Assembly (NCBI GenBank): GCA_964019425.1
Contig: OZ025795.1
Location: forward strand, 310,001-374,000
Reading direction: 5' to 3'
Length of the DNA stretch: 64,000 bases
Source: Flectonema sp. DT1601
Lineage: Eukaryota
Under the pieces are notes generated by a model. It did not search any database. It was given only the letters and a program-made list of their open reading frames with translations, and was not told the DNA's origin. Of the stretch, positions 7,063 through 52,164 are shown one piece after another. Numbering within the stretch: position 1 is the first letter of the stretch; each line of letters starts with the position of its first letter. Made by a program: the position numbers and the translations under genes.

Positions 7063-7583
7063 ATTGTCTAAGTGGTACTGTAGTAAGAAGATAGTAAGGA
7101 ATCATTTCATAAATAAACATTTATCAGAGAATGAATTTTGTTATTTATGTCGCCGTATGCCTGCCTTAAAGAATTGATGCGTTACATGAATACATCACAA
7201 CAACACTTCACAAATGTCTACACGAATATAACTCAACCATATGCTACAAGGAATTTAATTTGAGAATACAAGTTCGTTCTACAGCAGTCAGAACTCGGTA
7301 CTCACAACTATAAAAGAGAACAATAAAGAAAAAGGGGAAGTAACAGAGAACTGGAACTGCGCATTAAAAAGAAAGAAAAAAAAAAGCTTTCGAAACTTAA
7401 AAGAAGGTACATGGGATACTGTTTTACTGGGTTTGATAATTGTTCATCTCTTTGTTATTCCTCAAGAGCATTTTTAAAAAAGAAAAGAAAAAAGAACATA
7501 AATACTATCATTGTACAAGAAATATAGATACAGGTGTTATTTTTTTTATTTTTTTATATTTCATATTCAAAAAAAAAAAGTTT

Positions 7584-10127
7584 TCATTGTTGAATTCCGT
7601 TTCTTTCGAGGGCGATCTTTTGCATTTGTTTAAACCTATCAGAACCAATGATATCTGAAGTACTTAGTGGAGATTGAGATTTTCTAGGAGGAGACCGAAG
7701 TGATGATCTTTGAACTGGGATGTCAAGATTGCCGAACTGATTCGAAGCTCTCTCCACTTCAGATTCAGCAACCGACCGCAATGCTTTTGAATGAGACAAA
7801 AGCTCAGACGTTATTTGACTTCGAGCATCAAGCAATGGTGACTGCTGGTATGATGGTTGAAATCGAGTAGCCATATTCTCAACAACATGAACTAGTTGTT
7901 CATTTTTTGATTGAAGTTCATTCATCTGACGAGTCATGCTAACAACCTGTTCTTGAAGATTAACACCACTTGATATTTCTACACCTCCTCCTTCGTATCC
8001 ACCACTTAATAGCATTGCACTTAAACTACAACCATCATGGATGCAGCATTCTTGAAGAGTGTAGTTTTCTCTCAGAGGACTATTGTTAAAAAATAAATCA
8101 AAAGTGCTTGGAGTTGGCATACCAGCTTGTGAGTAAAGTCGATTCTTTACAGAGCCTACAGTCTCTGATGACCTACAATCGATTGTTAGCATTTTGTATG
8201 GTATTCTACCAACATGATGAATGTCGTTTTTGTCGTTTATGTATGGCAGTGTTTCATCTATAATTGTTATTTTGAGAACATGTGAACGCGGTGATGGTGA
8301 TCGTGATTGTGACTGAGACTGTGAATATCCAGACTCAACACCACCACCATCATACATGTTCAAAACAGATGTCGATGAAATCCCATATGATGTAAGCAGT
8401 CTGTTATCAATAAGTGATTCACCACACCATTCTAAGACTTGGTTAGAAATAGGAATTCGTTCTTTCTCTTGGATTCGTTGCTTTAAAGAAGCAACAGTAG
8501 AATTATAAGGTACCGCCAACCGTACCTTGTGCCTCCCTTCGATATTAATAATAACATTACTAAGACCTGAAGATCTCGATATGTGTAGTGTATCACCAGA
8601 TTTAATACCATAAGATGATAACGTTCTGGTGTCTTCTAACTTTCTCTTTCGCCCATCAAGTAGTTGCTGTGAAAGACATTGGTTAAAGCTAGGCACTCCA
8701 TTGATTCCTTGTATTCTCAATTTCACTACAGATACGGTATCCGATGGGGAAACATTCTTTATAACAAACTCAACACCCGGTTCTGACAACTGCTGAACAA
8801 CAATCGTCATCTCATGTGGAGTTGCGTAGTTTAAATTATTAAAACCAGCTGGATCCGATGCAGGCGAAGCCGAATATATCTGCCCCCTCGACGTTGGCAC
8901 GGACTCGAACTGTGGGATAGCATTATTAAAAGACGGTGCTGGAATAGAAACAGCCGGTTGCTGAGGCTGTGCTTGTCCGTATATTTCAACATCACCAGGG
9001 GTAGGAGTAAAAAGAGAACTACCCATTCTGACAAGCCCACTTATTAGTTCTCCTAGGGTACCTGCTTCTATACTTTTACCATTTTCGAAATCAATCCTTC
9101 GAACAGCTCTGACTAAACTGCTAACTGGAGCTTCAGAACGCCATCCAACTCTACTCTGTTCTTGAAGATCTCGAAGTCCTTGAATCTTTTCCTTAAGTTG
9201 TTGAGCTTCAGTGTATTGTTCTGCCTTCACTGCTGCTTCTTTCTTCGCCATGAGTTCCTCCAATTCTGATGAAAATGGTTGACGAGCAGCACCACCAACA
9301 CCAGTATTAACCAAATGTGCTAGTTGATACGCCTGGTTGGGGTGTAGTTTTGCTGATGGTACTGCAGGGTCGACACCAGTGTCAGTGCTGGTTTGTTTTT
9401 TTTGTTCGGCTGTTGCTTCCAGTTTTGGATCTGTTGTGGGTTTTGCGGCTTCAGTCTCAACAGGTTTGTGTAGTTTTACTCTGGGTAGGCCATCTGGGCT
9501 TATTTCTTGAACAGTTGCTTCTTTCCATGGTTGAGAGTCATCGTCGCGGAATAATATTTTGTCACCAACTTTGTAAGTAGATCTCGGGGAGGTAGAAGTA
9601 GGGCTGGATAAACTCTTGAGCATTTGTTCTTTTAATCGACGTTCTTCGTCCTCTCGTTCTTGCGCTTTTTTACGACGATCTTCGTCCTCGCGTAGGCGCT
9701 CCTCACGTTCTCGCTTTCGACGTTCTTCATCGCGATCCATTGTTCGCCATCCTACTTCAATCCAACCACCGTTTTCATCGTGGGTCACATCACTTTTTAA
9801 TTGAAGTCGTTTTCTTGTTTCTTTATTATTATCAGACGTTACAAACAATTTAGCATAACTCATTACCATTTCATGAGGAGCATACTCAGGCTTATGAACT
9901 ATCTTAAATGTCAAGGCATTCCTCAACCTTCCAACTGTTTCCTTACTTGTTCCTTTTACTACATCATTCCAAACAGGGTCTCTTGTGTCTGTTACTTGGA
10001 AAGATGATCCTATCTTCTCTCCTGCGTATTCAATATTTACTTTCGGATTACATCTTCTATGTGTGTGTTCTGATCTGAATCCCAGAACGTTCTTCGCCTG
10101 GTAGATGTCAAACACCCACGAGGTCAT
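7584..10127 (-). CDS. Multidomain protein: C2 domain, coiled coil, Tudor/SH3-like barrel, UVR domain, three ubiquitin-like domains
   Basis: C2: FDIYQAKNVL..NPKVNIEY..DTRDPVWND. Barrel: YKVGDKILFRDDDSQPWKEATV. UVR: LEELMAKKEAAVKAEQYTEAQQLKEKI. Ubl x3: SDTVSVVKLRIQ..LEDTRTLSSYGIKSGDTLHI; STVASLKQRIQEKERIP..LIDNRLLTSYGI; SETVGSVKNRL..LRENYTLQECCIHDG. Likely ATG at 10127. Confidence 0.8.
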   Translation of the reverse strand: MTSWVFDIYQAKNVLGFRSEHTHRRCNPKVNIEYAGEKIGSSFQVTDTRDPVWNDVVKGTSKETVGRLRNALTFKIVHKPEYAPHEMVMSYAKLFVTSDNNKETRKRLQLKSDVTHDENGGWIEVGWRTMDRDEERRKREREERLREDEDRRKKAQEREDEERRLKEQMLKSLSSPTSTSPRSTYKVGDKILFRDDDSQPWKEATVQEISPDGLPRVKLHKPVETEAAKPTTDPKLEATAEQKKQTSTDTGVDPAVPSAKLHPNQAYQLAHLVNTGVGGAARQPFSSELEELMAKKEAAVKAEQYTEAQQLKEKIQGLRDLQEQSRVGWRSEAPVSSLVRAVRRIDFENGKSIEAGTLGELISGLVRMGSSLFTPTPGDVEIYGQAQPQQPAVSIPAPSFNNAIPQFESVPTSRGQIYSASPASDPAGFNNLNYATPHEMTIVVQQLSEPGVEFVIKNVSPSDTVSVVKLRIQGINGVPSFNQCLSQQLLDGRKRKLEDTRTLSSYGIKSGDTLHISRSSGLSNVIINIEGRHKVRLAVPYNSTVASLKQRIQEKERIPISNQVLEWCGESLIDNRLLTSYGISSTSVLNMYDGGGVESGYSQSQSQSRSPSPRSHVLKITIIDETLPYINDKNDIHHVGRIPYKMLTIDCRSSETVGSVKNRLYSQAGMPTPSTFDLFFNNSPLRENYTLQECCIHDGCSLSAMLLSGGYEGGGVEISSGVNLQEQVVSMTRQMNELQSKNEQLVHVVENMATRFQPSYQQSPLLDARSQITSELLSHSKALRSVAESEVERASNQFGNLDIPVQRSSLRSPPRKSQSPLSTSDIIGSDRFKQMQKIALERNGIQQ

Positions 10128-10277
10128 GTTTGTTCTATTTTTTGTGACATACTGAAGACATAAATGAATTATATATTTACTGACAGACTTCATCACCATA
10201 CTCGAAATGTCCTCCCGAGATTCCCAATAACATAAACAGCTCTTGACAGCTACCGTGTACTGAGTACTACAATAAGA

Positions 10278-10343
10278 ATATCTTCCGAGGTTGTCTGGAC
10301 CCACAAAACATAAAGAAGGTCGTGCAGGGGATTCGACTCGGCT
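10278..10343 (-). ncRNA. Single-hairpin H/ACA-like (AGA box) snoRNA H2; predicted SSU target UUGUCUGG-Psi-U-GAUUC
   Basis: Lower stem CCGAG/CUCGG, upper stem CCUGCA/UGUGGG, AGA 3 nt from the 3' end. Pocket arms GAAUC and CCAGACAA lie ~15 nt from AGA. Site corresponds to human 18S Psi1367 (recalled). Confidence 0.7.
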
Positions 10344-10409
10344 ATCCTTCAAGAACAGGCAGGCAATACGATGAATGGAACAACGCACTCACAACAGCAG
10401 GGCAACAAA

Positions 10410-10502
10410 AGGATCAGCTTGAAGGCCGAAATTACTTGAAATCAATAAAAAGGATTTTCATACGAACGAGATCTATTGGGTAATTTCTATATCATCATGA
10501 GA
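10410..10502 (-). ncRNA. Box C/D snoRNA family A, copy 1 (double guide)
   Basis: C box AUGAUGA (10498-10492), D box CUGA (10417-10414). D guide antisense to LSU UUGAAGGCCGAA. D' (AUGA) guide antisense to SSU ACGAACGAGAUCU; the D'+5 rule gives the A equivalent to human 18S Am1383 (recalled). Confidence 0.85.
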
Positions 10503-10544
10503 TATTGTGGAATCAATAACAACAGAAGGAAGAGAACGGCAATA

Positions 10545-10582
10545 GAAGGGTTGTGTGTGTTATCCATCATGTGAATCATGTG
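10545..10582 (-). pseudogene. Truncated 5' fragment of snoRNA family F (C-box end only)
   Basis: Near-identical to the C-box end of family F (11646-11683) but lacks the guide, D' and D boxes. Confidence 0.6.
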
Positions 10583-10604
10583 AAGGAAGTGAATGTTCGA
10601 AGAC

Positions 10605-10704
10605 CAGACAATCAGACAGCCCGTCGTTGTTTGTCACCAGATCTGCACCCAAAGGGAGCAGGTAAGGCATCAGCTTGCAATACGACTTTCTCATCATGTG
10701 TCTG
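10605..10704 (-). ncRNA. Box C/D snoRNA family B, copy 1 (SNORD43/snR70-like target)
   Basis: C AUGAUGA, D CUGA, D' CUGA, 6-bp terminal stem CAGACA/UGUCUG. D guide antisense to SSU GCCCGUCGUUGUUU; D+5 is the decoding-centre C (yeast Cm1639/human Cm1703, recalled). Confidence 0.85.
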
Positions 10705-10732
10705 AAATTACTTCAAAGGAGATACATCAAGA

Positions 10733-10798
10733 GATTCTTGTACACGTGGGTGTGCGTTAATTCCATATCCGGAAGGAACGCGACCGTATTGCGTACTT
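10733..10798 (-). ncRNA. Single-hairpin H/ACA-like (AGA box) snoRNA H1; predicted LSU target UGGGUU-Psi-A-GACCGU
   Basis: Lower stem GUACGC/GUGUAC, upper stem GCGUU/AACGC, pocket arms ACGGUC and ACACCCA, AGA 15 nt below the pocket top. The target is in the peptidyl-transferase region and requires one bulged guide base. Confidence 0.7.
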
Positions 10799-10868
10799 TC
10801 TAAAAAGAGATTGGGAACTTCTTCAACAACAAAAACGATCAGCAGGGAAGCAGGAACACGGCAGAAAA

Positions 10869-10974
10869 AGCAACGCTCAGACACGAAAGCTACGTCAACA
10901 AATAGCATTCAGGTGACTCACGGTCTGCAGAACTATGAGATCGGCTTTCTATCTCGTCAATCATTCGCGTTGCT
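10869..10974 (-). ncRNA. Box C/D snoRNA family C, copy 1
   Basis: 8-bp terminal stem AGCAACGC/GCGUUGCU, D and D' CUGA, atypical C box AUGAUUGA. Guides are antisense to ACACGAAAGCU and UGACUCACGGUCU; targets uncertain, possibly adjacent SSU sites. Confidence 0.7.
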
Positions 10975-11026
10975 ATGTTTCCCTTTTTTCCAACTCCCAC
11001 AAAACACAGAAAAGATGTCGTACACA

Positions 11027-11122
11027 CAGAGCTCAGACAGCAGGACGGTAGTTGCAGTTTGGTTTCATGAGTAAAGGTTGGAAGCCATCAAATATTATGA
11101 TAAGGTGATCATCTTCGCTCTG
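11027..11122 (-). ncRNA. Box C/D snoRNA family D, copy 1
   Basis: Terminal stem CAGAGC/GCUCUG, D CUGA, C variant AAGAUGA. 13-nt D guide antisense to conserved LSU ACAGCAGGACGGU. Confidence 0.8.
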
Positions 11123-11169
11123 AATGACGACAATTCAAATCAAAGACAGGTTCTGGAAAGGTTCTCAAA

Positions 11170-11243
11170 TCAGACAAAGTAGTAGTAAGAAGTTATCGTC
11201 AAATATAATCCGACATATGCTTGTTATGATATGTGATCATCAT
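11170..11243 (-). ncRNA. Box C/D snoRNA family E, copy 1 (U27/snR74-like target)
   Basis: C AUGAUGA, D CUGA. D'-like CGGA is preceded by a guide antisense to the SSU 5' end CAUAUGCUUGUU; D'+5 gives the conserved Am27/28 (recalled). Confidence 0.8.
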
Positions 11244-11271
11244 ATTACTTTAGACAGTCAGTTTCAGAGAA

Positions 11272-11377
11272 AGCAACGCTCAGACACGAAAGCTACGTCA
11301 ACAAATAGCATTCAGGTGACTCACGGTCTGCAGAACTATGAGATCGGCTTTCTATCTCGTCAATCATTCGCGTTGCT
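11272..11377 (-). ncRNA. Box C/D snoRNA family C, copy 2
   Basis: Identical by eye to 10869-10974. Confidence 0.7.
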
Positions 11378-11430
11378 CTTTTCCCCTTTTTTCCAACTCC
11401 TACAAAAACACAGAAAAGATGTCGCACACA

Positions 11431-11526
11431 CAGAGCTCAGACAGCAGGACGGTAGTTGCAGTTTGGTTTCATGAGTAAAGGTTGGAAGCCATCAAATATT
11501 ATGATAAGGTGATCATCTTCGCTCTG
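11431..11526 (-). ncRNA. Box C/D snoRNA family D, copy 2
   Basis: Identical by eye to 11027-11122. Confidence 0.8.
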
Positions 11527-11580
11527 AATGACGACAACTCAAATCAACGAGAAGAAGAAGAAGTGAGAACGACAAGGAAG

Positions 11581-11683
11581 CACGAAGTCAGCAAGTTTTA
11601 AACCTTTTTTCAAGTCACGAGAAATCAGAAGCAAGACTGGCGTTGGAAAGGTTGTGTGTGTTATCCATCATGTGATTCATGTG
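11581..11683 (-). ncRNA. Box C/D snoRNA family F, copy 1 (U38/snR61-like target)
   Basis: D CUGA (11591-11588), D' CUGA (11628-11625), C variant AUGAUGG. D' guide antisense to AAGCAAGACUGGCG versus LSU consensus AAGCAGAACUGGCG; D'+5 gives the yeast Am1133 equivalent (recalled). Confidence 0.75.
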
Positions 11684-11705
11684 AAGGAAGTGAATGTTCG
11701 AAGAC

Positions 11706-11805
11706 CAGACAATCAGACAGCCCGTCGTTGTTTGTCACCAGATCTGCACCCAAAGGGAGCAGGTAAGGCATCAGCTTGCGCTACGACTTTTTCATCACGT
11801 GTCTG
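11706..11805 (-). ncRNA. Box C/D snoRNA family B, copy 2
   Basis: As copy 1, but with C box GUGAUGA and substitutions in the D' guide region. Confidence 0.85.
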
Positions 11806-11868
11806 AAATAAATACATAAAAAGCCAGGTGTGAGGCCTCCCACAATACATAGCACAGCAAGGCTCAAG

Positions 11869-11942
11869 TCAGACAAAGTAGTAGTAAGAAGTTATCGTCA
11901 AATATAATCCGACATATGCTTGTTATGATATGTGATCATCAT
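11869..11942 (-). ncRNA. Box C/D snoRNA family E, copy 2
   Basis: Identical by eye to 11170-11243. Confidence 0.8.
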
Positions 11943-11970
11943 ATTACTTTAGACAGTCAGTTTCAGAGAA

Positions 11971-12076
11971 AGCAACGCTCAGACACGAAAGCTACGTCAA
12001 CAAATAGCATTCAGGTGACTCACGGTCTGCAGAACTATGAGATCGGCTTTCTATCTCGTCAATCATTCGCGTTGCT
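11971..12076 (-). ncRNA. Box C/D snoRNA family C, copy 3
   Basis: Identical by eye to 10869-10974. Confidence 0.7.
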
Positions 12077-12129
12077 ATTTTCCCCTTTTTTCCAACTCCC
12101 ACAAAAACACAGAAAAGATGTCGCACACA

Positions 12130-12225
12130 CAGAGCTCAGACAGCAGGACGGTAGTTGCAGTTTGGTTTCATGAGTAAAGGTTGGAAGCCATCAAATATTA
12201 TGATAAGGTGATCATCTTCGCTCTG
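12130..12225 (-). ncRNA. Box C/D snoRNA family D, copy 3
   Basis: Identical by eye to 11027-11122. Confidence 0.8.
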
Positions 12226-12276
12226 AATGACGACAACTCAAATCAACGAGAAGAAGAAGAGAGAACGACAAGGAAA

Positions 12277-12379
12277 CACGAAGTCAGCAAGTTTTAAACC
12301 TTTTTTCAAGTCACGAGAAATCAGAAGCAAGACTGGCGTTGGAAAGGTTGTGTGTGTTATCCATCATGTGAATCATGTG
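12277..12379 (-). ncRNA. Box C/D snoRNA family F, copy 2
   Basis: Near-identical to 11581-11683. Confidence 0.75.
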
Positions 12380-12452
12380 AGAAGTGCTGGTATTCCAAAT
12401 GCATGAAAGGAATCGAAAAAGAACAACGCACTCACAACAGCAGGGCAACAAA

Positions 12453-12545
12453 AGGATCAGCTTGAAGGCCGAAATTACTTGAAATCAATAAAAAGGATTT
12501 TCATACGAACGAGATCTATTGGGTAATTTCTATATCATCATGAGA
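12453..12545 (-). ncRNA. Box C/D snoRNA family A, copy 2
   Basis: Identical by eye to 10410-10502. Confidence 0.85.
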
Positions 12546-13077
12546 GAGACTTGTCAACAAATTTGAAATGTACAATCCGTATCTTATTATTTGTGACTGC
12601 TGCTAAATAAAATATTAACGTAACGGCGAACTAAAACCTATCTTACGATGAAGAAAGTAAAACGCAAAGCGTTACAATCACAAGAGTACTTCGCAATAAT
12701 ATTGTTAAGAAATAAGAATAAAAATAGAAGTTCAGCGGCAGCTAAACTCTACAATCAAATAAGAGCTGCGCCAACTGGTTGGCAAAAAAACAAATCAACT
12801 TCAACTCTGTACTTTCGTTTGGGTAGTTAGTGAGCCCAGGTTCCAAGAAAATCAAAAAAAAAAAAAAAAAAAAGTGTCTTTGACACTAAATATTTCCTGT
12901 CAATTATTAAAACACACACAAGTGAAATAAATTGAACGGTAGTTAATTCAAACAAACAGTCATCTCACAGAAATCGGTTCATGTCAGTGGTTAGAGTGAC
13001 TGATCAACATTCCTTCTTTGAAGGAATACAATTTCAGTGAATAATTGAAAGGTTTGTTGTGTTTGTTTGTATTGACT

Positions 13078-16000
13078 TCATTGAATATTGTGATCAAGTA
13101 ATGGATACTTACCACCAAGTCTGTAAACACTCAACACCTCAGCCAAGTGAGGAGGGGACACTACTTCATTAGCTTCTTTACGCTCAGCTTTAGAGAGCAG
13201 TTCCATATTTTGTCTGATCGCAGTTTTTATGCCTTCTCTGTTAATCCTTGATAATGGAAACCCATACTGATCAATAGTCAAATCAATAAGTGTCTTATTT
13301 CTAAGACAGCTATTATCTAACGACCCTCCAAGTACTAAACGAAAAGCACTGTGACCCCTCTCATCAATAGCATTATGACGAAGAGACAGAGAGAGAAGAG
13401 TTGTATTAAATCGCAAAGCCTCAGCTATTTGTTCAGCTCCGAAATTTTCAATTCTGTTGCAAAGCTCTCCAATAGCGACAGTCATTATAAGAAATCCGAG
13501 GTCTAATTTACGAACTGTTTTATTTATCTTTAAGAACTCAGCAACATACGTAGATCCAACTGAACCAATTCCTGAGGACGAAACATCCAACATCTCAAGC
13601 TTCATGTCCGTGACTGAAAATAACATTTTCGCACCTTCATCTCCCAGTCTATTACAACCCAAACCTAATGACCTGAGTCCCGTTGGCTTTCTGAGCATAT
13701 CACAAATAGAAGGAATTGACTTGATAGTTATTCCATTACCATTTAAGTAAAGAACTTGTAAGTGTTTATTATCAGTCAATCCCTTCATAAGTATTTCTGT
13801 ACCCTCATCAAGAAGACCTGTACAGGTTAGATCAAGAACTTTTAAGTGTCGATTTAATGAAATCATTTTTGATAAATGAACAGCAGCAAATGGCTTCAGA
13901 GGATTTCTCTTCAGCCATAATTGGTTTACGTAGTCATCAGTTTGAAGAGCGTCACACAAAGGTTTAATACCAACGTCAGTTAAGTGATTACCTGCTATGT
14001 ACCAAGTTGATACTGATGATGATTTATTTATTACCATGTCAGCTACCCCGTTACCAAGATTATCACCAGCAATGTTATTACCCAACAACAAGTGTCTCAC
14101 TTTACTTTGATTGTCATTTCGTAAGCTGTCAAGCAACGGTTCGATTCCCTTCGGACCGATTACCTGCTTACATAAATCAAGACGACCATCACCACACATG
14201 GTTCCTTTTGTAAATGCTATAAAGTCATTCGCTTTTTTAAGTTTATCAGCTGTTTTAATATAATCCAACACAGGTTGCATCTGAGTACCAGTTGCGATAT
14301 CAACAGGTTCTGGTTCTGGATGAAGTATCATTTGTGATAGAGGAAGGTCAGATACTAATTGTTGATATTCTTGTTGACTTCTCTGTTGATCGATAATGTT
14401 CTCCTTCCAGTTTGAGTAGATAATTGATTTCTTTAGATTGTAGTAATCAAGATTGTATTTGGTGTTTAAAATATCTTTTATTGATTTCACTACTTCATTA
14501 AACTTCTTAATCTTATCGTAGGTTGCCTTAGACGGTAATATTGATTCCATGTTACGAACTAACTTGTCACTCGTCAGTTTCACGAGTTCAGTTTTCTTCG
14601 CAGAGTAGGTACGACGAGTCTTCAAGCAATGGAGGACACAATCTGACGGACGCTCACTTGTCGATGCGGATATACATTTTTGGTAGTCTTCGTACAGCTT
14701 GTCAGCAATTAACTGCGACACTGTTTCCAACAACTCTCTGACGACTGGTTGTGAGCGATGGGATTCCTCATCCTGTTCTTGAACTACATCACAAAGACAG
14801 TTATTCTCTTTTTCACAAACATTTACCTTCCTAGAAGTTCCAGTACACGATAATAAACAAAGTCTTTCCATATCCTCCCAACCACCGTAGTATTGAATTG
14901 AATGAAGTAATTTCATTGTAATGTCAAAACGACTTTCTGATGTCGGCTGTTCATTTATAATAGCCCACCACAACCAATAGACTGTCTGGTTAGAACGTTC
15001 CTGTAGTGTCACGTAGTCAGAATTAGATATTTCTTTTTTCTTGAATGGAGATCTCAATTTCTTTTTTCCAACATTTACATACTGACACCATGAAAGAAGT
15101 AACAAGTCACTGTCTATTGTCTTTGTATCAACTGAAGGATGACCTCTCATTTCCTTAACGAATTCTCTAATGTCACTCTGTTGAAAACAGACATGAGGGT
15201 CCATAGCAATAGTCTTCCCTTTTGATTTACAAGTTTCCCAGAAAGTTGTTGTGAGTAAGAACTTGTTACAAATACCAACAGGAATGAGTGGGAATAAATC
15301 ATCTTCAGAACCTCTACACTTCATTGTTGATGATAGTTTTATTTGTAAGTCTGGTTCTGGTTGTGACTCCAGTGGATTAATAATAACAGAACTATCAAAT
15401 TGAGTATTGTCAGATACTTGAAGCTGATCTAACCAGTTTGAGATGTCATCGATGGGCCATTTTCCAATCGCTTTTTTAAAATGATCACCAGAATGACTTT
15501 TAACTAACGGATTTCTAAACACCTGAGAGAGTCTAACAGTCCTATCTGATGGCATGATGGTATCTGTTTCTCCATAAATATGAAATGATGGAATCTCAAG
15601 ATTCATTGAAGTGCTGTGAAGGTCTTTAAAACGATCACGAGAATCTCTACATTCTCCACCTGAAATACAAATATAACATTTTGGAGTAAAGTACTTAGCC
15701 TTGTCTGAACCAGATGCCTGTAGTGAAGCCATTATAGCGGCTATACAGGCACCTTGACTGAATCCTATCACACATTGAAACGGACCGTTAATGTTAAAAT
15801 AATTATTAAGATATTCAATAGATTCATCTAACCCTTCATAAATAAGATCACCTGACTCACTAGTTGTAGAGTTGTACCAATGTCTTCCTGTGTTTGCAAT
15901 CATTTGAACGTTTCCTTCTGAAAATGAACTTTTGTGAGGAGCGTCTGCGAACACGAATTCGACGTTGCTGTTTTTACTGATTCCAGTCAGGGCTTGTTTT

Positions 16001-16725
16001 GCTGCTCTTGAGAAGCTTCTTCCATTTTGACGAAGTCCATGTAACACCAGTACTCTGATCAAACCAGTTTTTGTACTAACAGATTGCTCAGGAACGACGT
16101 TACTCACGTTACTCTGTTTCGGAGATGACTTTGCCTCCACAGCAGAGATATACCTCATTTCAGATTGGGTTGATTCCCTTCCAAGTAATTCGTTGCGGAG
16201 AGGATCACGTTTAAATTTCTCGAGGATGCCACGCATTCGAATCGAGTCCTTAAAACATTTGTTAACACGAGTTCCAACAGAACTCCCAACACCACCATGA
16301 TGACTTATTATTGAAGTAAATCCAACAATAGCTCTTCTAACATCAAACATGATCTCAGAATCACACAAAGCTATGTAAATAAAACAAATATAAGTCCACG
16401 GAAGTGATGAAATTGAAGCTCCGATATCATCAGCTGCTGAATTTGATATTTTCGAAATGACTTCGTCGAATTCGAATCTTCTTTCTTTATTGATGACGCG
16501 GTGTATCTGACTTAGTAGTATTATTGAGGCTACCTTACCTTCGATACTACCTGACTCATTCCAGTCTTTCCATGTATTATCTTGTATGTAGTTATTAAAA
16601 GTACTTCTCATATAATCAATTGTTTCAACTCGACTTAATCTTCTTTGTGAATCAACACATCCCCACCATAGTTTACTTCTCCATTGGAGATTGTCTCCGA
16701 ACCAAAAATTTAAAACTTCGTTCAT
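13078..16725 (-). CDS. Fusion protein: DUF924-like + FSH1/OVCA2 serine hydrolase + ribonuclease-inhibitor-like LRR
   Basis: DUF924-like: EVLNFWFG..ASIILLSQIHR..ILEKFKRDPLRNELLGRESTQSE. FSH1: RVLVLHGLRQNG, IGFSQGA, PSFHIYGETDTIMP, HSGDH. C-terminus: FTKGTMCGDGRLDLCKQVIGP followed by ~28-aa LxxLxLxxNxI repeats. Intronless, 1215 aa. Confidence 0.85.
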   Translation of the reverse strand: MNEVLNFWFGDNLQWRSKLWWGCVDSQRRLSRVETIDYMRSTFNNYIQDNTWKDWNESGSIEGKVASIILLSQIHRVINKERRFEFDEVISKISNSAADDIGASISSLPWTYICFIYIALCDSEIMFDVRRAIVGFTSIISHHGGVGSSVGTRVNKCFKDSIRMRGILEKFKRDPLRNELLGRESTQSEMRYISAVEAKSSPKQSNVSNVVPEQSVSTKTGLIRVLVLHGLRQNGRSFSRAAKQALTGISKNSNVEFVFADAPHKSSFSEGNVQMIANTGRHWYNSTTSESGDLIYEGLDESIEYLNNYFNINGPFQCVIGFSQGACIAAIMASLQASGSDKAKYFTPKCYICISGGECRDSRDRFKDLHSTSMNLEIPSFHIYGETDTIMPSDRTVRLSQVFRNPLVKSHSGDHFKKAIGKWPIDDISNWLDQLQVSDNTQFDSSVIINPLESQPEPDLQIKLSSTMKCRGSEDDLFPLIPVGICNKFLLTTTFWETCKSKGKTIAMDPHVCFQQSDIREFVKEMRGHPSVDTKTIDSDLLLLSWCQYVNVGKKKLRSPFKKKEISNSDYVTLQERSNQTVYWLWWAIINEQPTSESRFDITMKLLHSIQYYGGWEDMERLCLLSCTGTSRKVNVCEKENNCLCDVVQEQDEESHRSQPVVRELLETVSQLIADKLYEDYQKCISASTSERPSDCVLHCLKTRRTYSAKKTELVKLTSDKLVRNMESILPSKATYDKIKKFNEVVKSIKDILNTKYNLDYYNLKKSIIYSNWKENIIDQQRSQQEYQQLVSDLPLSQMILHPEPEPVDIATGTQMQPVLDYIKTADKLKKANDFIAFTKGTMCGDGRLDLCKQVIGPKGIEPLLDSLRNDNQSKVRHLLLGNNIAGDNLGNGVADMVINKSSSVSTWYIAGNHLTDVGIKPLCDALQTDDYVNQLWLKRNPLKPFAAVHLSKMISLNRHLKVLDLTCTGLLDEGTEILMKGLTDNKHLQVLYLNGNGITIKSIPSICDMLRKPTGLRSLGLGCNRLGDEGAKMLFSVTDMKLEMLDVSSSGIGSVGSTYVAEFLKINKTVRKLDLGFLIMTVAIGELCNRIENFGAEQIAEALRFNTTLLSLSLRHNAIDERGHSAFRLVLGGSLDNSCLRNKTLIDLTIDQYGFPLSRINREGIKTAIRQNMELLSKAERKEANEVVSPPHLAEVLSVYRLGGKYPLLDHNIQ

Positions 16726-17346: not shown

Positions 17347-20300
17347 TTAGCATTCTGACAACTTTAAACGAGGAATTACGTTCATTGACATCATCTCTTG
17401 AAATAATAATTTACAAGCGTATGGAACTTTAACAGAAGAAACGTGAGCGTATGAATTACAGAACTTGCAGTATCCTGAGTACCCAATCAGACCACAGTTA
17501 CCACAGACGTAGACAAGAAACTCATCAGAACTAAACATAAGTCGTTCATTGAGAAGCATTGCAGCACCGTAACCTACTAAGCAATCACGTTCCATCTCTC
17601 CAAGTCTCATACCTCCTCCTCTGGCTCTTCCTTCTGTTGGTTGGCGAGTCATGGTCGTTCTTCGTCCAACTGATCTAGCGTGCATTTTATCAAGAACCAT
17701 ATGCTTAAGTTTTTGGTAGTAGATTGGACCAAAGAATACGTATGCCGGCATCTGTTCACCAGTAATACCTGAAGTCATTAAATCTTTACCGTGGTAAGAG
17801 TAACCAGCTCTCACTAATCGTTCCCCAATGTCGTGAACCTTATCCGCACCAGTGTTTCTTTTTGTTTGATCACCAAATGCCGTGGCATATCCGTGTTTTC
17901 CAACTGTGATACCAGCCTTTCCAGATATCATCTCAATCATTTTTCCAACAGTCATACGACTAGGGAAACCATGGGGATTCATAATAAGATCTGGTGGCAT
18001 TCCAAGTCTATTAAATGGAAGCTCTGCTTGATGAACAATTAAACCACAAACACCCTTCTGTCCGTGACGACTTGAAAATTTGTCTCCGAATTCTGGTTGT
18101 CTTGTCTCTCTAAGAAGAACCTTAACAGTTCTTTGACCCTCAAATGAGCTAATTGAGACCTGATCCACTACCGCTTCTGTTCCTTTGAATCTGAGAACTG
18201 ACGGAGTGTACTCTACTTCGGATTTACCGTCTTTGTCAACACCTGTTTTGTTTATATTTTTGGGTATTTAAAAAAAGTAAAAAACCATTCAGATAAGCCT
18301 TATATTTTGTTGATCTCAGCTAGTTTTACTGGCGCACAGGGAAATAGATAACATGACATAATAAATAACGGCTCTTAATCTGAATAGTTTCTTCTCCGAC
18401 TTCGTCGGTGCAAAAAAGAAATATTAACATCCAATAAAACATACCAGCAATATGAGGGATGTGTTTATTCACAAGGATGTCTCCAGTTTTAACACGAGCT
18501 CCCTTTGGTACAATTCCATCTTGATCAAGAGCCTGTAGATCTTCAACTTTAGTATCAGCAGGTTTTGGACTAATAATATCACACCATGTTTCTAGAACGT
18601 TATTTGATGATTTTGCCTCTCGTAGGGTGCAGGAGTATTTCTTCATCATCATACACCTTCCAAGACCTCGTTCGATAGAACATTTATTCCAAATTTGAGC
18701 ATCTTCAATATCGTAACCGCTGTATGACATAACTGCGACCATGCAGTTGTTTCCAGCTGGGAGTTGTTCAAATCCAATTAGGTCAATAATTCTTGTCTTT
18801 ACCATTGGTTTTTGTGGATAGACTAACAGGTAAAGTACCGTGTCAATTCTAACTTGTTGATTTAACGCCATGCATCCCATTGCTTGCTTACCCATGGCAC
18901 ATTGATATGTATTTCTAGGACTTTGATTATGATGTGGAAATGGTACAAGACCAGCAACAACACCCATGATGGTGAATGGTTCGATTTCGATGTGAGTTGA
19001 CTGAGCTGAGATGTCTTCTTCTCTCATTGCAATGTATGAATTGTTTTCTTCATTGACGTCAAGATATTCAATAATACCGGATTTTAAGAAATCATAGAAA
19101 TTAGTAATTCCCTGAGCCAACTGTTTCATAAGAAACTTACTAACCCTTGGAACACCATTATCCACAATGATCAAAGGACGACAAACTCTTCCTTCATCCG
19201 TTGCTATTGTAATCGACTTTAGAGTAGCGTTGTACTGAATCGAAGTGAAAGGATCGATTCGACCTCGTCTACGAAGCTCTCTAAATTGTTGTAAAAATCT
19301 ATTGTGATATCTGTGGATTCCTAGTAAGTGACCGTTTAAAAACACGGTTACTTTCTTACGAATGTCGTCACCAGCAGTCATCTCGATGTCCTCGACTCCG
19401 ATATTTAAACAGATGTCAGCTATTGGTCCTTCCTTACCCATGTTAGTTACTTGACATAATAATGAGAAATTTTTTACAAGACCACACTTTTCTCCTTCAG
19501 GTGTGTCAGCTGGACACAACATTCCCCATTGGGATGGTTGAAGCGAACGCGGACCAGCCAATTTGAGCGATGCATCAACACCAGATGCAACTCTTGTCAT
19601 CATACCCAACGCTGCAATGTATGAGTAGCGACATAGCAGTTGTGTTACACCTTTTTTATCAATTTTGAAACGACGAATATTCCAATTACCGCTACTGATA
19701 GCTAGTTGTAAAGCTTTTGTAATTATCTGTGAACTCTGCATTAGAGCTCCGAAATGAAAAGCAGTCGCTCGTTGTTTTTTTGTTATACTTTTGTCAGCTT
19801 CCTTTTTAATTTCTTGATTGAAAATTTTGAAAAGATCTTCGAACTGAAGAGATAAAAGATTTCCAGCAAGTTCCAAACGTTTATTTCCATAGTAATCCTT
19901 ATCATCTAAGATAGAAGGATCGTCCCTCCCGAGGAGCATACGCCTCGTCATGATACACAACGTTGCTATTTTATTACGAAAACACCAATCATGAACTGGA
20001 ATATGACAAAGTACAATGTTAGCTAAATGATCAGCAGCTCTATCAGAACCGTCTTGGGCTTTGTAGATGTCACTTTTTGTTTTGTCAGGTACGAATCGAT
20101 TTCCTATATATTCTAATGCTTGGCTTTGAGTAAAAACTTCAGATGTAATACACTCATTCATCGTGTTTAGAAGTATAGTTTGAAATGATTTTTCTGTTCC
20201 AACCATTTGAATGAATTCCTGTTCATGTTCACAACCCATAGCCTTAAGGACGATCATTATGTTTATTTCTTCAGTCCAGGCATTGGTTTGAACTTTAATC

Positions 20301-21086
20301 TTTTCGTGTTTTATAACAATTAGCGTTCTAGATTTAGTTCTGTGAGTACTGCTGTTTACAACAGCTTGTAATTCTCCAGTCTTGTCTTGTTCGACGATAA
20401 TTCTATTTCTTGCTAAATTTTCTTGTACCAATGCTACCTTTTCTACTCCCTTGACAATGAAATAACCACCAGGATCGAGAGGACATTCTTGTAGACGTGC
20501 TAGTTCTTCAGGGCTTTTTCCGTGAAGATGACACCTCGCGCTTCTCAACATTATTGGAATCTTACCAATCGTGACTCCCTTACGACGTACCAGAGCAACA
20601 CCTGCTGCAGTTCGGTGAGTGTATTCGATGTTTACTTTAATATTACCGCTGTATGTGAGATCCCGAAGTCGACATTGATTAGGAGTTAGTTCATTGTGTC
20701 TTGACTTGTCCATGCTTTGTCTTGGTTGAGGATCCTCAGGATATTCAACATAGATATCATGGTATCTCAAATAGATTTCTGGGTCAACTGTTACTATTTC
20801 TCTGTTTGCGTTCATTATTTCCGTCATGTCTTTTTCAATCTGTTTTTTTTTTTTTTCTTTTTTTGTAGAACAATACGATTTTTTCTACAAAAATAACACA
20901 TACCAAGAAATTAAATGAATCAACGTGTTGTCTGACGAATCCTTTGACTTTAAGAAAGGCTGGTAATAATTTCCATTTTTCCTCGACAGTTGAAACACCG
21001 TTAGCTAGTATCTCATCATTGTACAAGTCACCTGCCTCATCTCTAGGAAGGACTCGCTGTGCGAGTTTAATGACGTCCTCCGACAT
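17347..21086 (-). CDS. RPC2: RNA polymerase III second-largest subunit; exons 21086-20904, 20839-18445, 18242-17347 (1157 aa)
   Basis: [72 protein letters not shown] and a C-terminal Zn ribbon. Two GTATGT..CAG introns keep frame. Confidence 0.95.
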
Positions 21087-21489
21087 TTTGACCAAATCTG
21101 AAGAAGAAAATAGAACCATTAAAAGAAGAGAAAAAAGTCAAAAAAAAAAAGAAAGTTAACATCAAATAGTTAGTGTCTAGCAGCGATAAGTCATCCAACA
21201 AGTACAACAAATAAGTCAAAAAAAATTTCAATTTAATTTAAAAAAAATTGTAAGGACTCAAACAAAGAATCGTTGCGTTTCGAGCCAAAATTAAAAAAGC
21301 TTTCTTCAGACCATTCCCCTTTCCCAACCCTCTTCAGCAAAGGAAAGCAAGGCCTCGTGTTTGCCCTTCTCAGCAAATAGTTGTTAGTTAGTTAAATATA
21401 AATATGGTTTCAAAGTCAACTAATATAACAATTAGTAATTTATGATACAGATCAGAAGGAGTAGAGATGAGAGTAATAAATAAAAGAAA

Positions 21490-24869: not shown

Positions 24870-27800
24870 TTATGGCATCCCGGGGATGTATGAACGAGCT
24901 GCAAGAAGACTTCTACCCGACCTCGGTGGTGATCTTCCGGCTCTCAGAGGTGAGTTCCTCGCACTTACACTAGTCAAAGTAGCGAGTCTGCTTTGATAAG
25001 GAACTCTGGACATAGTTCCAGTTGGTGTGACTGGAGCTGAGCCAAGACCACTGTCTCTAATCCTTTCGGGAGTGTTTCTCGCCATTGGTGGAATCAATTC
25101 CTGTTTGTGTGTTGTTAAAGTAACTCGCACACTACAACAACAAATACAACTCAACAATATCATACCTCTCTCTTCAATGGAGAGAATGGACGTGTTGATC
25201 CAATCATTGAAGCGCTGACACGTTTAGCGGTAATGAGAGAGTCTTTTGATCCTGTTTGTGTTTTAACTGTTTTAAGAATTCAATAAATAATAAACTTAAC
25301 TAACTGTGACAGTGATGATAACAAACCTGGTGAAGGAGTTCTATCTCTTCGTGGTGATAGGCCAATCTTAATCCCTGAACCTGATCTCTGCCACGTTGAT
25401 GAAACAGCTGACGCTCGAGGTGTCATGACGGAGGAGGGTGTTGCGCCAGTTCTAATTTGACGAAGTTCGTCTTCAAGAAGAGCAGCTTTTCCCTTTTCAT
25501 CTTCAGTCGCCTCAGTCATTACTTGAAGTCGGCCATCAAGTCTAGCGAGGTTTGTTCTCAGTCTAATGACTTCATTATTTTTAGTAGCCAATTCAGTCAT
25601 TGCTGCTTCAGCATCCTGAGCCTTTCTTGAAAGCTCTCTACGGAGATCATTAGCTTCACGATCCTTCTCATTAAGAAGTGCTTCCAGGTCTGAAGTGCGA
25701 GCAGAAAGGTCTCTTACGGTAGCAACGTGGCCGTCTGATTGTTTTCCAGTGACGTCAATTGCTTCTCTTAGGCGTAGTAATTCTGCCTCTTTGTGTTCAA
25801 GGATTGCAGGAAGGTGTGATAGCTGCCTCAGTTTATTTACTTCCTCTTGAACAGCTGCTGCCTGTTCACGTGCACCCGTCATTTCTTCTTTTGCGCGGAT
25901 GAGAGTGATGCTATTTTCACTCGCTTGTCTTTCTGCGGTGTCCCTGGATATTTCTAAGGCACCAGTTCTCTCTCTGTAGCTGTTCAGCTCTCTTTCCATA
26001 ATTGATGCTTCATTTAGTGATGCGTCGACTTGTTTACGAAGTGCTTCCTTTTCACTCTCTTGAGCATTGCACTTCATCTGAGACTGTCTGTAAGCTTCAT
26101 CCATAGCGTCAATGCGACCTTCGAATCGAGCGATTGATCCTTTCATTCGAATACCTTCCTGAGCCTTTTCAGTTACCTGACACTCGAGATCATCTCTAAT
26201 TCTGATAATGTTTTGCATTTCAATCGAAAGTTCGTTTATTTTCATCTGAAGCTCATCACACGAAACTTCTTTCTCAGACACTCGCTGTTGAAGTGTTTGT
26301 GAAGATCTCGCGTAGTTCTGTGCCTCGTCTTCTGCCCTTGAAAGTGATTGCCTCAAACGAACTAATTCAGCTTCTTGAGTTTCAATTACTGATGGCAGGT
26401 TCTCGAGACGACGTACTTGAGTTTCAAGTCTGATCATTTGATCTTTCAGAAATGAGTTCTTCTCTTTCAAAGAAAGGATGTCTTCATCCTTAGCAGCAAG
26501 TCTTCCTTCAAGACGAGATATTTCTAAAGCTGCGGTACCAGTGGCGTTCTTCTCATCGTCTAGTTGTTGTTGAAGACTTCGAATATCACGCATACGATCT
26601 CCAATAGTCTGAGCCTGTTGTTGACATTTATCATCGAGTGTCTGTAGTTGGAGATGTTTGTCTTCGAGTGCTCGCTGAAGATTTTCGATTTCTTGTTCGC
26701 GTTTGTTGGTTGCGTCGTGAAGTACTTGGACTTCATCTCTTGAGATTCTTAACTCTTCTCTGTACTCGGCGTTCTTTTGTTGTAATCTACCAACTTGTGC
26801 TGATAAAGAAATACGTTCTTGTTCCAATACATCTGTTGCGTTCTGAGCATCTTCCTTCTCTCCTTGAAGCTTTACAATAACTGCACCCCACTCAGATAAT
26901 TCTCTTCTCTGTTCAGCTAGTCTGGCTTGAAACTGTGCACTTTGCGCTTCGCTGTCTCGGAGTTGTGCCTGAGCATCAGCGCGTAAATCTTCTGCTGTCG
27001 CTACCCTCCCTTCAAGTTGAGCGATCTTCCCCCTCGCTGCTGATAAATCAGCCTTAGCAGCTGATGACTGCCTTCGACTTTCTTCCAAGTCAGCTCTGGT
27101 TTGCTCTCTCAACATGTTTGACTCCTCTCTGATTCGAAGTATTTCAGTGTGAGAGTCATCGAGGTCAACATTCAACTTCTCAACCTGCTGCATGAAGGCG
27201 GTGCGTTCTCTGCTGAGTTCATCACAGCGGGAAGTACGCTCGCTGAGATCTTTCTCTTGACCAGCAAGCTTTGCTTCAGTGTAAGAGATGTGCTCAAGTC
27301 TTTCTTGAAGTTGTTTCTCAAGACTGCGAATACCAGCTTCGTGTTCACCTACTTGTGATGATTGATGTCTTCCTCTTTCACGAAGTTCTTCAATCTCATC
27401 TTCCTTACCGTGAATAGCTCTTTGAAGTCTTTCTAATTCACAGACTCTGTCTTCCAGTTGGCGGGTTAGGTCGTCGGACTTTCTCTGAGAGTCGTCGTGT
27501 TTGTTACACCAGCCGTCAATTTCTGACTCCAGTTGTCTTCTGATTTGTTCGCTGGAATTTATTCTTTCGCTCAAGGTTTGAGTTTGTAATCCACTTTCAG
27601 AAAGCTGTCTACGAAGACGGCCGAGTTCTTCCTGTCCATGAAGGGCCTCAACTCCCTGTTGTTTAGCTCTTTCTTGAAGAGTGAGAAGTTCACGTTCTCG
27701 TTCTTGAAGTATTACTTCGAGTTCACTGGATCTGACTCTGAGGGAACGAAGTTCTACTTGTGAATCTTCATTCTGTTGAGTAGCAGTACTCGCTACTCTC

Positions 27801-28357
27801 TGAAGTTGAGTTTCTCTCGAGATCAGATCATCATTTGATCGACGTTGTTGTTCCTGAGATCTTGCCAACTCATCAGTTAGCTGAGCTTGAACTCGTCGAA
27901 GGTCTTCTAATGCTCGTTCAGCAGCATCACATCTTTCAATTGAGAGATCCATATCTTGTTTTACTCTACTCGAACGAACTCGTTCTTCATCAAGTTCTTG
28001 CTGAAGCTTTGATGTGACTCCAGTGTATTTCAGTTGAACTCTGTCTCCATCATCAGCTGATCTTCTGGCATCTGCAACTTCCTTTTTCAGAGTCTGGACA
28101 GCAACAGCTAGTGATCTATTCTCTTCATCTTTATCCCTCAATTGATTCTTGTATAGTTGTAATGTGTGTGCGTGTCCTGAAATTGTGTCTTGCAAAGTTC
28201 CTACGTTCGATCTCAACGATTGAATTTCTCCTTTCGATTCATTCACAGCCAACTGTAGTAGCTCTGCTTTTCCCTTTGCTGCAGTGCTTGAGATGGAGAT
28301 GGGTGATCCCGCTAATGCATTTATTGGTGATTTACCATACGAGTCGTATGTCGACAT
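24870..28357 (-). CDS. Large coiled-coil protein (1115 aa) with SP/TP-rich tail; exons 28357-25327, 25251-25166, 25100-24870
   Basis: ~950 aa of E/Q/R/L heptads. Introns 25252-25326 (GTTTGT..AAACAG) and 25101-25165 (GTATGA..AAACAG) join three segments in frame. Confidence 0.8.
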
Positions 28358-28426
28358 CTTGCTGTCTGAGAGATGTAAAATAAATTGATAAAGAGTGATA
28401 CAAAAACTACAAAGATACATCTCCTA

Positions 28427-29545
28427 CTATTGTATGTACTTGCCTGTTGCCTTGGAATAATATTTTTTGCAATAGCCGTCGATTCGGAGGTTCTTCTTCT
28501 TTGCGTATTCAAGCAGGCTGTCAGCTGCGGGAGCATCTCTCAACAGTGAGTACAACTCCATCATCACTGTGAGTATTCTGGTTGATGTAATGCAATCACG
28601 TTTCTTAGCATCTTCAAATGCTTCTGTTGCAGCGACGGCATATTTATTGTCAGATGTGAATTTCAAAGCATCACAATGTGACTTTATAAGAGCACCATAC
28701 GCAATGCTATTCGGTTCGATGTTATCAGCAATCATTTCTTCCCATATCTCTGCTACTCTTTCATGAAGACCTGCAGCTTTAAACACTGTTAAGTACCCAG
28801 TCCATTCTTTAACAGATAATTTCATATTCTTATTGAGTTTTAGTTCTGTCATTAGTCTGTCAGCTTCGTCAGTATCAAGTGTTTTTGAACACACTTTGAA
28901 TAGAGAACCGTATGAAACAATGTCCAGTTCGAATCCCTCATCCTTCATTTCTTGCAGAATTGGCCGTGCGTCGTCCATGTCATCGCAAGCTGCTAAGAGC
29001 ATGTTGTAGACTGGTGTGGTTAGATGAGAACCTTGTTTTTTAAATGTTGCTGCTGCATGGAGGGCGGAATCCAATTGATTTCGTTTGCAGAGACCGTGAA
29101 CGACTGATGCGACCATGCCTCCGCTTATAGGAGTGTCGGGGTGGGATAATCTAAGTTTGTCCCATGTGGAAAAGAACTTTTTACCATCGTGATCAGTTTT
29201 ATCATGAGAACAAGCGAACAGTAGGCTGACGTACACACTAGGACCAGGAACCTTTCCGCTGTCGACCATATCATCGAATAGTTGCTGAGCTACCTTAGAG
29301 TTTCCATAACCAGCTACGGCTGATATCGCTATTGAGTAAGCCTTGTCTCCTAGATCCCATCCTTCACTCTTTAGCAATTCCATTTCTTTTACCATCTGTG
29401 TTGCGACATATTCACCTTGTAACTCATCACCATCACGTCTACCTCGATTGCTTTGAGGTTTTAAATTTTGAAGCCACAATCCAGCCAAGGCGTCTGTCAT
29501 TCGACGACGTTGGAACCGAACCATCGAATTTGTTAGTAAAAACAT
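28427..29545 (-). CDS. Pentatricopeptide repeat (PPR) protein, probably mitochondrial
   Basis: 35-aa repeats such as AYSIAISAVAGYGNSKVAQQLFDDMVDSGKVPG, VYNMLLAAC, DIVSYGSLFKVC and IEPNSIAYGALIKSHC; basic N-terminus. Confidence 0.88.
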   Translation of the reverse strand: MFLLTNSMVRFQRRRMTDALAGLWLQNLKPQSNRGRRDGDELQGEYVATQMVKEMELLKSEGWDLGDKAYSIAISAVAGYGNSKVAQQLFDDMVDSGKVPGPSVYVSLLFACSHDKTDHDGKKFFSTWDKLRLSHPDTPISGGMVASVVHGLCKRNQLDSALHAAATFKKQGSHLTTPVYNMLLAACDDMDDARPILQEMKDEGFELDIVSYGSLFKVCSKTLDTDEADRLMTELKLNKNMKLSVKEWTGYLTVFKAAGLHERVAEIWEEMIADNIEPNSIAYGALIKSHCDALKFTSDNKYAVAATEAFEDAKKRDCITSTRILTVMMELYSLLRDAPAADSLLEYAKKKNLRIDGYCKKYYSKATGKYIQ

Positions 29546-51930: not shown

Positions 51931-52003
51931 GCAGCTGTCGTCTAGTGGTTAGGACGCTCGCCTCACACGCGAGAGATCACCAGTTCGATCCTGGTCAGTT
52001 GTA
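51931..52003 (+). tRNA. trnV-CAC: tRNA-Val(CAC)
   Basis: Acceptor GCAGCTG/CAGTTGT, D arm GTCTAGTGGTTAGGAC, anticodon arm CTCGC-CTCACAC-GCGAG, T arm ACCAG-TTCGATC-CTGGT, discriminator A, then a TTTTT Pol III terminator. Confidence 0.95.
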
Positions 52004-52164
52004 CTTTTTACACTGTAAAAAGACGAAAACCCCACTGACTAAACTATTGCTGGGTCGTGCAATAGTAGATAAAGTAAAAAGGAAGGACTTGCCCGTGAAA
52101 CACATCCCCGCTAAAGGGGGCATAAAGTCACTGAGTAGTTCTTTGTTTTGTCATCATTTCTCAA

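Follow-up and report, generated by a model that had tools for sequence, protein, structure and literature searches.

Guide small nucleolar RNA (snoRNA) genes are clustered in both trypanosomatids and Euglena (PMC2784804, PMC2613932). In the trypanosomatids Trypanosoma brucei and Leishmania, box C/D genes and single-hairpin genes with an AGA box stand together in repeated clusters that include partial tandem repeats, and the RNAs are processed from polycistronic transcripts (PMC2613932). The present study concerns a 2.3-kb patch of repeats at positions 10278-12545, on the minus strand, between two genes of a diplonemid protist; positions are those of a 64,000-nucleotide (nt) stretch of contig OZ025795.1 (assembly GCA_964019425.1, filed as Flectonema sp. 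DT1601), which is called the window here. The C/D and AGA genes recognized in this patch are interspersed, repeated and confined to one strand, as in the mixed clusters of euglenozoans.

Boxes, box-adjacent antisense stretches, predicted targets at D+5 on mapped methylation sites, AGA hairpins and purifying selection together support snoRNA genes, and the patch is very probably a mixed, reiterated snoRNA cluster of the trypanosome/Euglena type. What is described here is a set of new snoRNA genes of an already known cluster type; that the class was known had been stated in a preceding reading of the letters alone (the sequence-only reading), and the literature bears this out.

Anatomy and conservation of the array

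Seventeen minus-strand elements were recognized (A twice, B twice, C three times, D three times, E twice, F twice, a fragment of F, H1 and H2), namely 16 intact modules of eight kinds, six of them of box C/D type and two of single-hairpin AGA type, and one fragment (Table 1). The near-identical repeats that the sequence-only reading had described are real in the repeat comparison of the window, and its order along the transcript, A-F-D-C-E-B-F-D-C-E-D-C-H1-B-(F fragment)-A-H2, was reproduced exactly by alignments and box positions. Its minus-strand boxes, terminal stems and AGA hairpins were found as well. A box C/D guide is defined by a C box (RUGAUGA-like) at its 5' side and a D box (CUGA) 70-100 nt away at its 3' side, by 10-21 nt of rRNA antisense immediately before D or D', and by association with fibrillarin, Nop56/58 and Snu13. 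All six C/D kinds begin with a C-like box and end with CTGA, at 74-88 nt from C box to D box; the C box is exact in A, B and E, has one mismatch in D and F, and two mismatches in C. Clear terminal stems occur in three of the six kinds (C, B and D) and are weak or absent elsewhere (E 3-4 bp, A none, F an offset 6-bp pairing only). H1 and H2 both carry the AGA box, and the array end at 10278 corresponds to AGA+3 of H2. The F fragment is likely a remnant of duplication.

A scan for C...D pairs over 15,894 intergenic bases, on both strands, returned 22 candidate rows. Of these, 16 (11 loci) lie on the minus strand of the array and 6 come from other intergenic DNA; the array's plus strand has none, and all three copies of module C escaped the filter.

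The copies within the array differ unevenly. Among the duplicated blocks, 4 differences were counted in 693 module nt, compared with 14 in 392 spacer nt (p = 6e-4); in A, C, D, E and F the cores do not differ between copies, while the spacers drift. All four module differences fall in B: an R-to-R change in the C box, one change just past it, and two in a D' guide that has no target. Two public runs from different studies (X1 and X2) contained pieces of the array at 95-100% identity, and the array flanks, which lie outside their coverage, were not used as evidence. Two of the 20 differences in these runs lie in modules, or 2 of 12 (p = 0.005) once the 8 that coincide with known copy differences or adjoin them are removed. 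One of the two, in X1, is a loss of 13 nt from the apical part of H2, which leaves the pocket intact. Further, one X1 contig reads H2, 45 nt, A and then F, showing that a related array continues head to tail. These comparisons support the action of purifying selection on the modules, and thereby their identification as snoRNA genes.

Table 1. Elements of the array and the two adjoining open reading frames (window positions).
Element	Positions	Strand	Remarks
Module A copy 1	12457..12541	-	85 nt; D' ATGA at 12504, D CTGA at 12460
Module F copy 1	12284..12367	-	84 nt; D' CTGA at 12324
Module D copy 1	12136..12218	-	83 nt; 6-bp terminal stem; candidate D' CTCA at 12174
Module C copy 1	11979..12066	-	88 nt; 8-bp terminal stem; internal CTCA (12041), CTGA (12014)
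Module E copy 1	11869..11942	-	74 nt; D' CGGA at 11911
Module B copy 1	11713..11798	-	86 nt; 7-bp terminal stem
Module F copy 2	11588..11671	-	core identical to copy 1
Module D copy 2	11437..11519	-	core identical
Module C copy 2	11280..11367	-	core identical
Module E copy 2	11170..11243	-	core identical
Module D copy 3	11033..11115	-	core identical
Module C copy 3	10877..10964	-	core identical
H1 single hairpin	10733..10797	-	65 nt; AGA box 10738-10736
Module B copy 2	10612..10697	-	4 differences from copy 1, none within D guide
F 5' fragment	10547..10570	-	C box and about 17 nt; truncated
Module A copy 2	10414..10498	-	inside 125-bp block 10378-10502 identical to 12421-12545
H2 single hairpin	10278..10342	-	65 nt; AGA box 10283-10281
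Upstream co-directional ORF	13078..16725	-	DUF924, FSH1 hydrolase and leucine-rich repeats; context only
Downstream co-directional ORF	7584..10199	-	ubiquitin-like repeats; context only

Two further features were noted in intergenic DNA. At 7124-7198 (-) stands a lone C...D-like candidate, which has a terminal stem of 7 bp and no rRNA target (score 8.25). The single-copy spacers 11800-11868 and 12378-12456 (-) can be folded into hairpins without C/D or AGA boxes, and may represent additional small RNAs or signals for processing.

Predicted targets of the C/D and AGA modules

All pairings reported here were made with ribosomal RNA (rRNA) of other species, bodonid-like and other eukaryotic, not with that of the host. 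The references were bodonid-like ribosomal DNA (rDNA) from metagenomes (50 loci, which resemble kinetoplastids wherever they can be read) and eukaryotic rDNA that contaminates prokaryote assemblies, with rRNA limits set by Rfam; four of the 91 loci, picked as long and complete operons, were used (L088, of plant type, L072, L033 and L007). Two scans of viral contigs for diplonemid rRNA gave no matches, and comparison of X1 and X2 with bodonid rDNA gave short universal pieces only and no variant rows. Thirteen box-adjacent guides, named here by module and box, were counted, with two trial boxes and the second copy of B-D' excluded.

Concerning the guides as a set, 6 of the 13 reached a score of at least 12, compared with 24 among the 721 other CTGA boxes of the window that served as controls (binomial p = 2e-6), and 4 of 11 did so when B-D, which had served as bait in the metagenome rDNA search, and F-D' were left out (p = 3e-4). 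Each C/D kind has at least one guide with 11-20 rRNA pairs, F with one mismatch. Among the individual guides, D-D forms 16 pairs with the large-subunit (LSU) rRNA and predicts C1238, the candidate D' of module D (CTCA) gives 11 pairs with bodonid LSU directly upstream of the A-loop, and A-D predicts LSU A1484.

The sequence-only reading had named six words as antisense to conserved rRNA, and four of them are exact in rRNA of other species. CAUAUGCUUGUU is present in 19 of the 50 metagenome loci, many of which lack the 5' end of SSU (small-subunit) rRNA; GCCCGUCGUUGUUU occurs in 50 of 50, which follows from how the bait was built; L088 contains ACAGCAGGACGGU and UUGAAGGCCGAA unaltered. The remaining two are inexact: ACGAACGAGAUCU makes 12 pairs including one G-U in bodonids and 10 pairs in L088 and L072, and AAGCA..ACUGGCG pairs with the references at the cost of one G-U and one mismatch. 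Exact 10-mers were about equally common on control and guide strands and were dropped as evidence, and a 17-nt match of the D' region of B to reference L009 was discarded, as it lay in the non-rRNA part of a chimeric contig.

When the D/D'+5 rule was applied on L088, E-D' predicted SSU Am28, A-D' SSU Am1330, B-D SSU Cm1645 and F-D' LSU Am1143, all of which are mapped in Arabidopsis 18S or 25S rRNA (Table 1 of PMC8053127). The four predictions that the sequence-only reading had placed on conserved methylation sites are thus all listed, with the qualification that B-D is the bait and that Am1143 is the third-ranked match of F-D', with one mismatch, its top match being off-target. L088 and Arabidopsis numbering differ by constant local offsets over 35 SSU sites and 17 of 20 LSU sites (803-1518). 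The top matches of 3 of the 13 guides land on Arabidopsis 2'-O-methylation (Nm) sites (p = 0.002), or 2 of 12 without B-D (p = 0.025). Am28, Cm1639 and Am1133 are listed for yeast (PMC5699541). The B-D site, Cm1645 in Arabidopsis, is Cm1639 in yeast and Cm1703 in human. The A-D' site is presumably Am1383 in human, a name that our text searches did not show.

Module C differs in layout from the other C/D kinds: a segment of 18-20 nt antisense to the 5' part of 5.8S rRNA is followed by the D'-like box CTCA, a possible second guide, another such box, CTGA, and the D guide, which makes 11 pairs with bodonid SSU. Its 5' segment forms 20 consecutive pairs (16 Watson-Crick and 4 G-U) with nt 21-40 of bodonid (L027-type) 5.8S rRNA, the first few overlapping the C box, and none of 100 shuffles reached this pairing. 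With CTCA taken as D', the target would be G24, which is neither among the Arabidopsis sites in PMC8053127 nor among the trypanosomatid 5.8S positions in the 30 of 36 matches listed from PMC13487219 (7, 36, 41, 43, 75, 101 and 162). A longer pairing over the whole 5' end of 5.8S (-34 to -45 kcal/mol) was rejected as not significant (-40.4 against -36.3 +/- 2.6 in shuffles, best shuffle -43.4, n = 40). It is conceivable, though rather doubtful, that module C is a three-guide C/D RNA or a chaperone of 5.8S processing or folding rather than a plain two-guide RNA; as a chaperone, it would hold the 5.8S 5' end until pairing with 28S. As T. brucei C/D RNAs with dual roles in modification and processing are known (PMC6411936), such a role would be a variant and not a new class.

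Regarding the AGA modules, the trypanosomatid H/ACA-like model describes a single hairpin of 57-91 nt whose stem I has 5-8 bp and is followed after 1-3 nt by an AGA that stands 3 nt from the 3' end, and a pocket pairing 3-9 nt per side with the target U 13-16 nt from the box; Cbf5-dependent stability and pseudouridylation separate such RNAs from 'AGA-like' RNAs (PMC2613932). H1 and H2 agree with the hairpin and pocket of this model. With the pocket held open, each folds as one hairpin of 65 nt, with a stem I of 6 bp in H1 and 5 bp in H2, 1 nt between stem and AGA, and AGA 3 nt before the predicted 3' end. The H1 pocket makes 5+6 pairs (11 Watson-Crick) at 14 nt, and its best target is a uridine of the peptidyl-transferase loop in three references. 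A mapped pseudouridine, human U4502 or Arabidopsis U2945 (PMC8351944), lies one base after this top prediction and fits the pocket with one bulge, the H1 site being placed by counting from the A-loop uridine (human Um4468) on the assumption of no indels. In the H2 pocket, 8+5 pairs form at 16 nt, with a score of 12.5 points that 4 of 150 shuffles reached; its best target is the SSU uridine that precedes the A-D' site by 16 nt. This uridine is likely Arabidopsis U1311 (human U1367), provided that a 3-nt offset between the two Arabidopsis numberings holds.

Two side observations concern the references. The rDNA of one bodonid-like metagenome contig (L038, 2292-2619) and that of a contaminant contig (L053, 3184-3604 and 9237-9723) contain group I introns. 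In addition, at least 41 contigs filed under prokaryote genomes (L051-L091) match a eukaryotic SSU rDNA motif, and the four checked by Rfam were all eukaryotic rDNA.

Setting of the array and alternative explanations

The RNA polymerase III second-largest subunit (RPC2) places the host among diplonemids and not with trypanosomatids or Euglena. The 833-residue RPC2 open reading frame (ORF) is 70% identical to the proteins of Diplonema papillatum and of the organism labelled Sspe, 58% to that of the organism labelled Hpha and, among the matches listed, 45-54% to the others. We take Sspe to be Sulcionema and Hpha to be Hemistasia. In a quick maximum-likelihood tree built from 20 of the 120 proteins listed, the host grouped with these diplonemids, with SH-like approximate likelihood ratio test (SH-aLRT) values of 100 for the group and 99 for the subgroup with Sulcionema and Diplonema. 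D. papillatum has unidirectional gene arrays, spliced-leader trans-splicing and unfragmented 28S rRNA (PMC10161547). In the window, 22 of the 23 ORFs of at least 120 residues are on the minus strand, all co-directional with the array, as the sequence-only reading had said of the flanking genes. The near-identical repeats lie in the stretch from the upstream ORF stop (13078) to the downstream ORF start (10199).

In the mechanism that seems most likely, which follows the trypanosomatid clusters, the array would be read within a co-directional polycistronic transcript between two mRNAs and trimmed to RNAs of 65-100 nt. Fibrillarin loaded onto the C/D RNAs would methylate the nucleotide that pairs five nt upstream of box D or D', and the AGA RNAs would load Cbf5, with conversion of the pocket U. 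Unequal crossing-over is the probable origin of the extra copies, which may raise guide dosage where transcription cannot be tuned gene by gene.

The sequence-only reading had proposed a comparison with Rfam as a check. In E-value mode, 17 of the 22 weak matches were to C/D snoRNA families, 16 of these on the minus strand; the foremost is SNORD27 on module E, with E 0.012 in a 3-kb search and 0.26 in the whole window. No Rfam trypanosome snoRNA family matched at E up to 10, and a weak match of module D to snoR31 (E 6.1) was treated as chance.

A number of observations weigh against the identification as a snoRNA cluster. No Rfam snoRNA family reached its gathering score in the window, SNORD27 (RF00086) itself standing at 31 bits against a cut-off of 52. 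Five of the 13 guides scored below 10, namely F-D, E-D, B-D', C-D' and F-D' at its known site, and the first four have no convincing target among the reference rRNAs. A-D (A1484) and D-D (C1238) pair well and are absent from the Arabidopsis table in PMC8053127. With box position ignored, the observed score was reached by 5 of 100 shuffles for B, 9 for E, 39 for A, 44 for F and 60 for D; only module C clearly exceeded its shuffles (0 of 100), so the guide signal lies in adjacency to the boxes. As for the hairpins, the H1 pocket score was reached by 23 of 150 shuffles, the unconstrained fold of H2 is no better than shuffles (z 0.44), and H2 has a G before stem I, a base unseen there in the trypanosomatid survey as available in PMC2613932. 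A scan for AGA hairpins in intergenic DNA gave 13 rows, of which H1 and H2 are two; a hairpin with AGA is not specific by itself. Lastly, the second module difference in X1 and X2 is a change in the C box of B in one contig, which at a depth of 2.5 may be an error.

The alternative that survives best, and which we still regard as unlikely, keeps the same snoRNA genes and places them inside an intron, of a 5' untranslated region or a non-coding host transcript, from which they would be released by cis-splicing; it differs in biogenesis only. GT-AG introns are present in the host's RPC2 gene, sites resembling AG acceptors lie beside the array (near 12808, 12630 and 10151), and about 41% of D. 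papillatum genes bear introns (PMC10161547). However, the upstream ORF ends at 13078 and the downstream ORF begins past the array, which excludes a position in a coding intron.

A far less probable explanation is that the copies were recently duplicated and are partly dead, some kinds or copies being silent or mismatched to the host rRNA. The truncated F fragment, the drift of the B D' guide between copies, the guides without target and the C-box change in one contig would fit such decay, but the identity of the A, C, D, E and F cores amid drifting spacers speaks against it. That the patch is a non-autonomous element of long terminal repeat (LTR) type, like a terminal-repeat retrotransposon in miniature (TRIM), or another selfish repeat with chance box words can hardly be upheld: identical 125-bp direct repeats do exist (Table 1), and D. 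papillatum has dispersed rRNA-derived repeats (PMC10161547), but the repeat consists of module A and 36 further nt, with neither TG...CA ends nor matching flanks, H2 lies outside its bounds, the interior consists of more repeated modules whose changes avoid the cores, the longest internal stop-to-stop frame has 122 codons, six frames compared with Pfam gave no match below E 0.1, and H2 is followed in X1 by another A-F junction, as in a tandem gene array. An LTR element is rejected on these grounds, and the remark of the sequence-only reading that the cluster merely resembles one agrees with the absence of both LTR termini and gag/pol coding.

Further observations were made on the genes around the snoRNA array. 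Upstream of its first ATG, the downstream gene keeps an open frame over 63 codons (10200-10388, -), running through H2; this extension is probably non-coding, since it has no Pfam match and the 13-nt deletion in X1 would shift the frame. The upstream ORF encodes 1215 residues in which DUF924, described as a bacterial family, is fused to an FSH1 serine hydrolase and leucine-rich repeats. The RPC2 gene (17347-21100, -) has GT-AG introns at about 20902-20840 and near 18440-18240, and in the first of these an A-rich tract precedes AG instead of a pyrimidine tract. A pentatricopeptide repeat (PPR) ORF (28427-29545) and a coiled-coil ORF (25280-28420) are separated by 6 nt within 25280-29545 (-), and a possible GT...AG intron near 28420-28366 could alter this gene model. 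The 1948-residue ORF at 45885-51731 (-) has repeated bacterial Ig-like and cadherin-like domains, and a similar repeat unit continues into the neighbouring ORF 44133-45554. A single tRNA-Val(CAC) gene (51931-52004, +) lies within the co-directional run of genes, on the strand opposite to the protein genes.

Comparison with known systems

Individual modules can be related to described guides, those of trypanosomatids being taken from a supplementary table of PMC13487219 (11 of 18 files searched). Module E shares its SSU Am28 target with TB8Cs2C1/LM36Cs2C1, U27 (SNORD27) and snR74, and 13 nt of its D' guide are identical to the T. brucei TB8Cs2C1 guide; by contrast, the D guides of module E and TB8Cs2C1 are unrelated, and the one in module E has no target match. 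SNORD27 and TtnuCD28 are its best Rfam matches, both below cut-off. By its predicted target, module E is a guide that works like U27 yet falls outside the Rfam SNORD27 threshold.

Module B predicts the same decoding-centre cytidine as U43, snR70 and TB10Cs4C3-LM18Cs1C1 (Cm1645, Cm1639 and Cm1703 by species), with the difference that the trypanosomatid RNAs use D' and module B uses D; TB10Cs4C3 also acts in LSU processing (PMC6411936). F-D' points to the LSU position homologous to that of U38, snR61 and TB9Cs4C1-LM35Cs3C7 (Am1143, Am1133; 1190 in Leishmania). Unlike these, it has one mismatch and one G-U against the references, which suggests a local variant in the host rRNA. Guides like A-D', those of C, D-D' and D-D were not among the T. 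brucei and Leishmania C/D sequences in the files searched, and diplonemid snoRNAs were not described in the literature searched, which held few subscription journals and included the available parts of PMC10161547, PMC9082867 and PMC11613528.

The module sequences provide seeds for annotating diplonemid snoRNAs that stand below Rfam thresholds and are possibly hidden by repeat maskers. The predicted sites also bear on the link between rRNA modification and rRNA fragmentation, a question raised in PMC9082867.

At the level of the cluster, the likeness to trypanosomatids and Euglena drawn by the sequence-only reading holds for the type of arrangement and not for the host, which is a diplonemid by RPC2 identity and tree. 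For Euglena gracilis, in which single-hairpin guides and clustering are reported (PMC2613932, PMC2784804), the likeness is by description, not by sequence. Single-hairpin AGA guides and reiterated mixed clusters are hereby indicated in the third main euglenozoan group. As 28S rRNA is unfragmented in the diplonemid group, unlike in trypanosomatids (PMC10161547, PMC9082867), these traits are likely ancestral to Euglenozoa and not a consequence of rRNA fragmentation; the surprise is modest, since parsimony already pointed to an ancestral origin. The array shares its cluster type with the trypanosomatids, while its module set and module order are peculiar to it.

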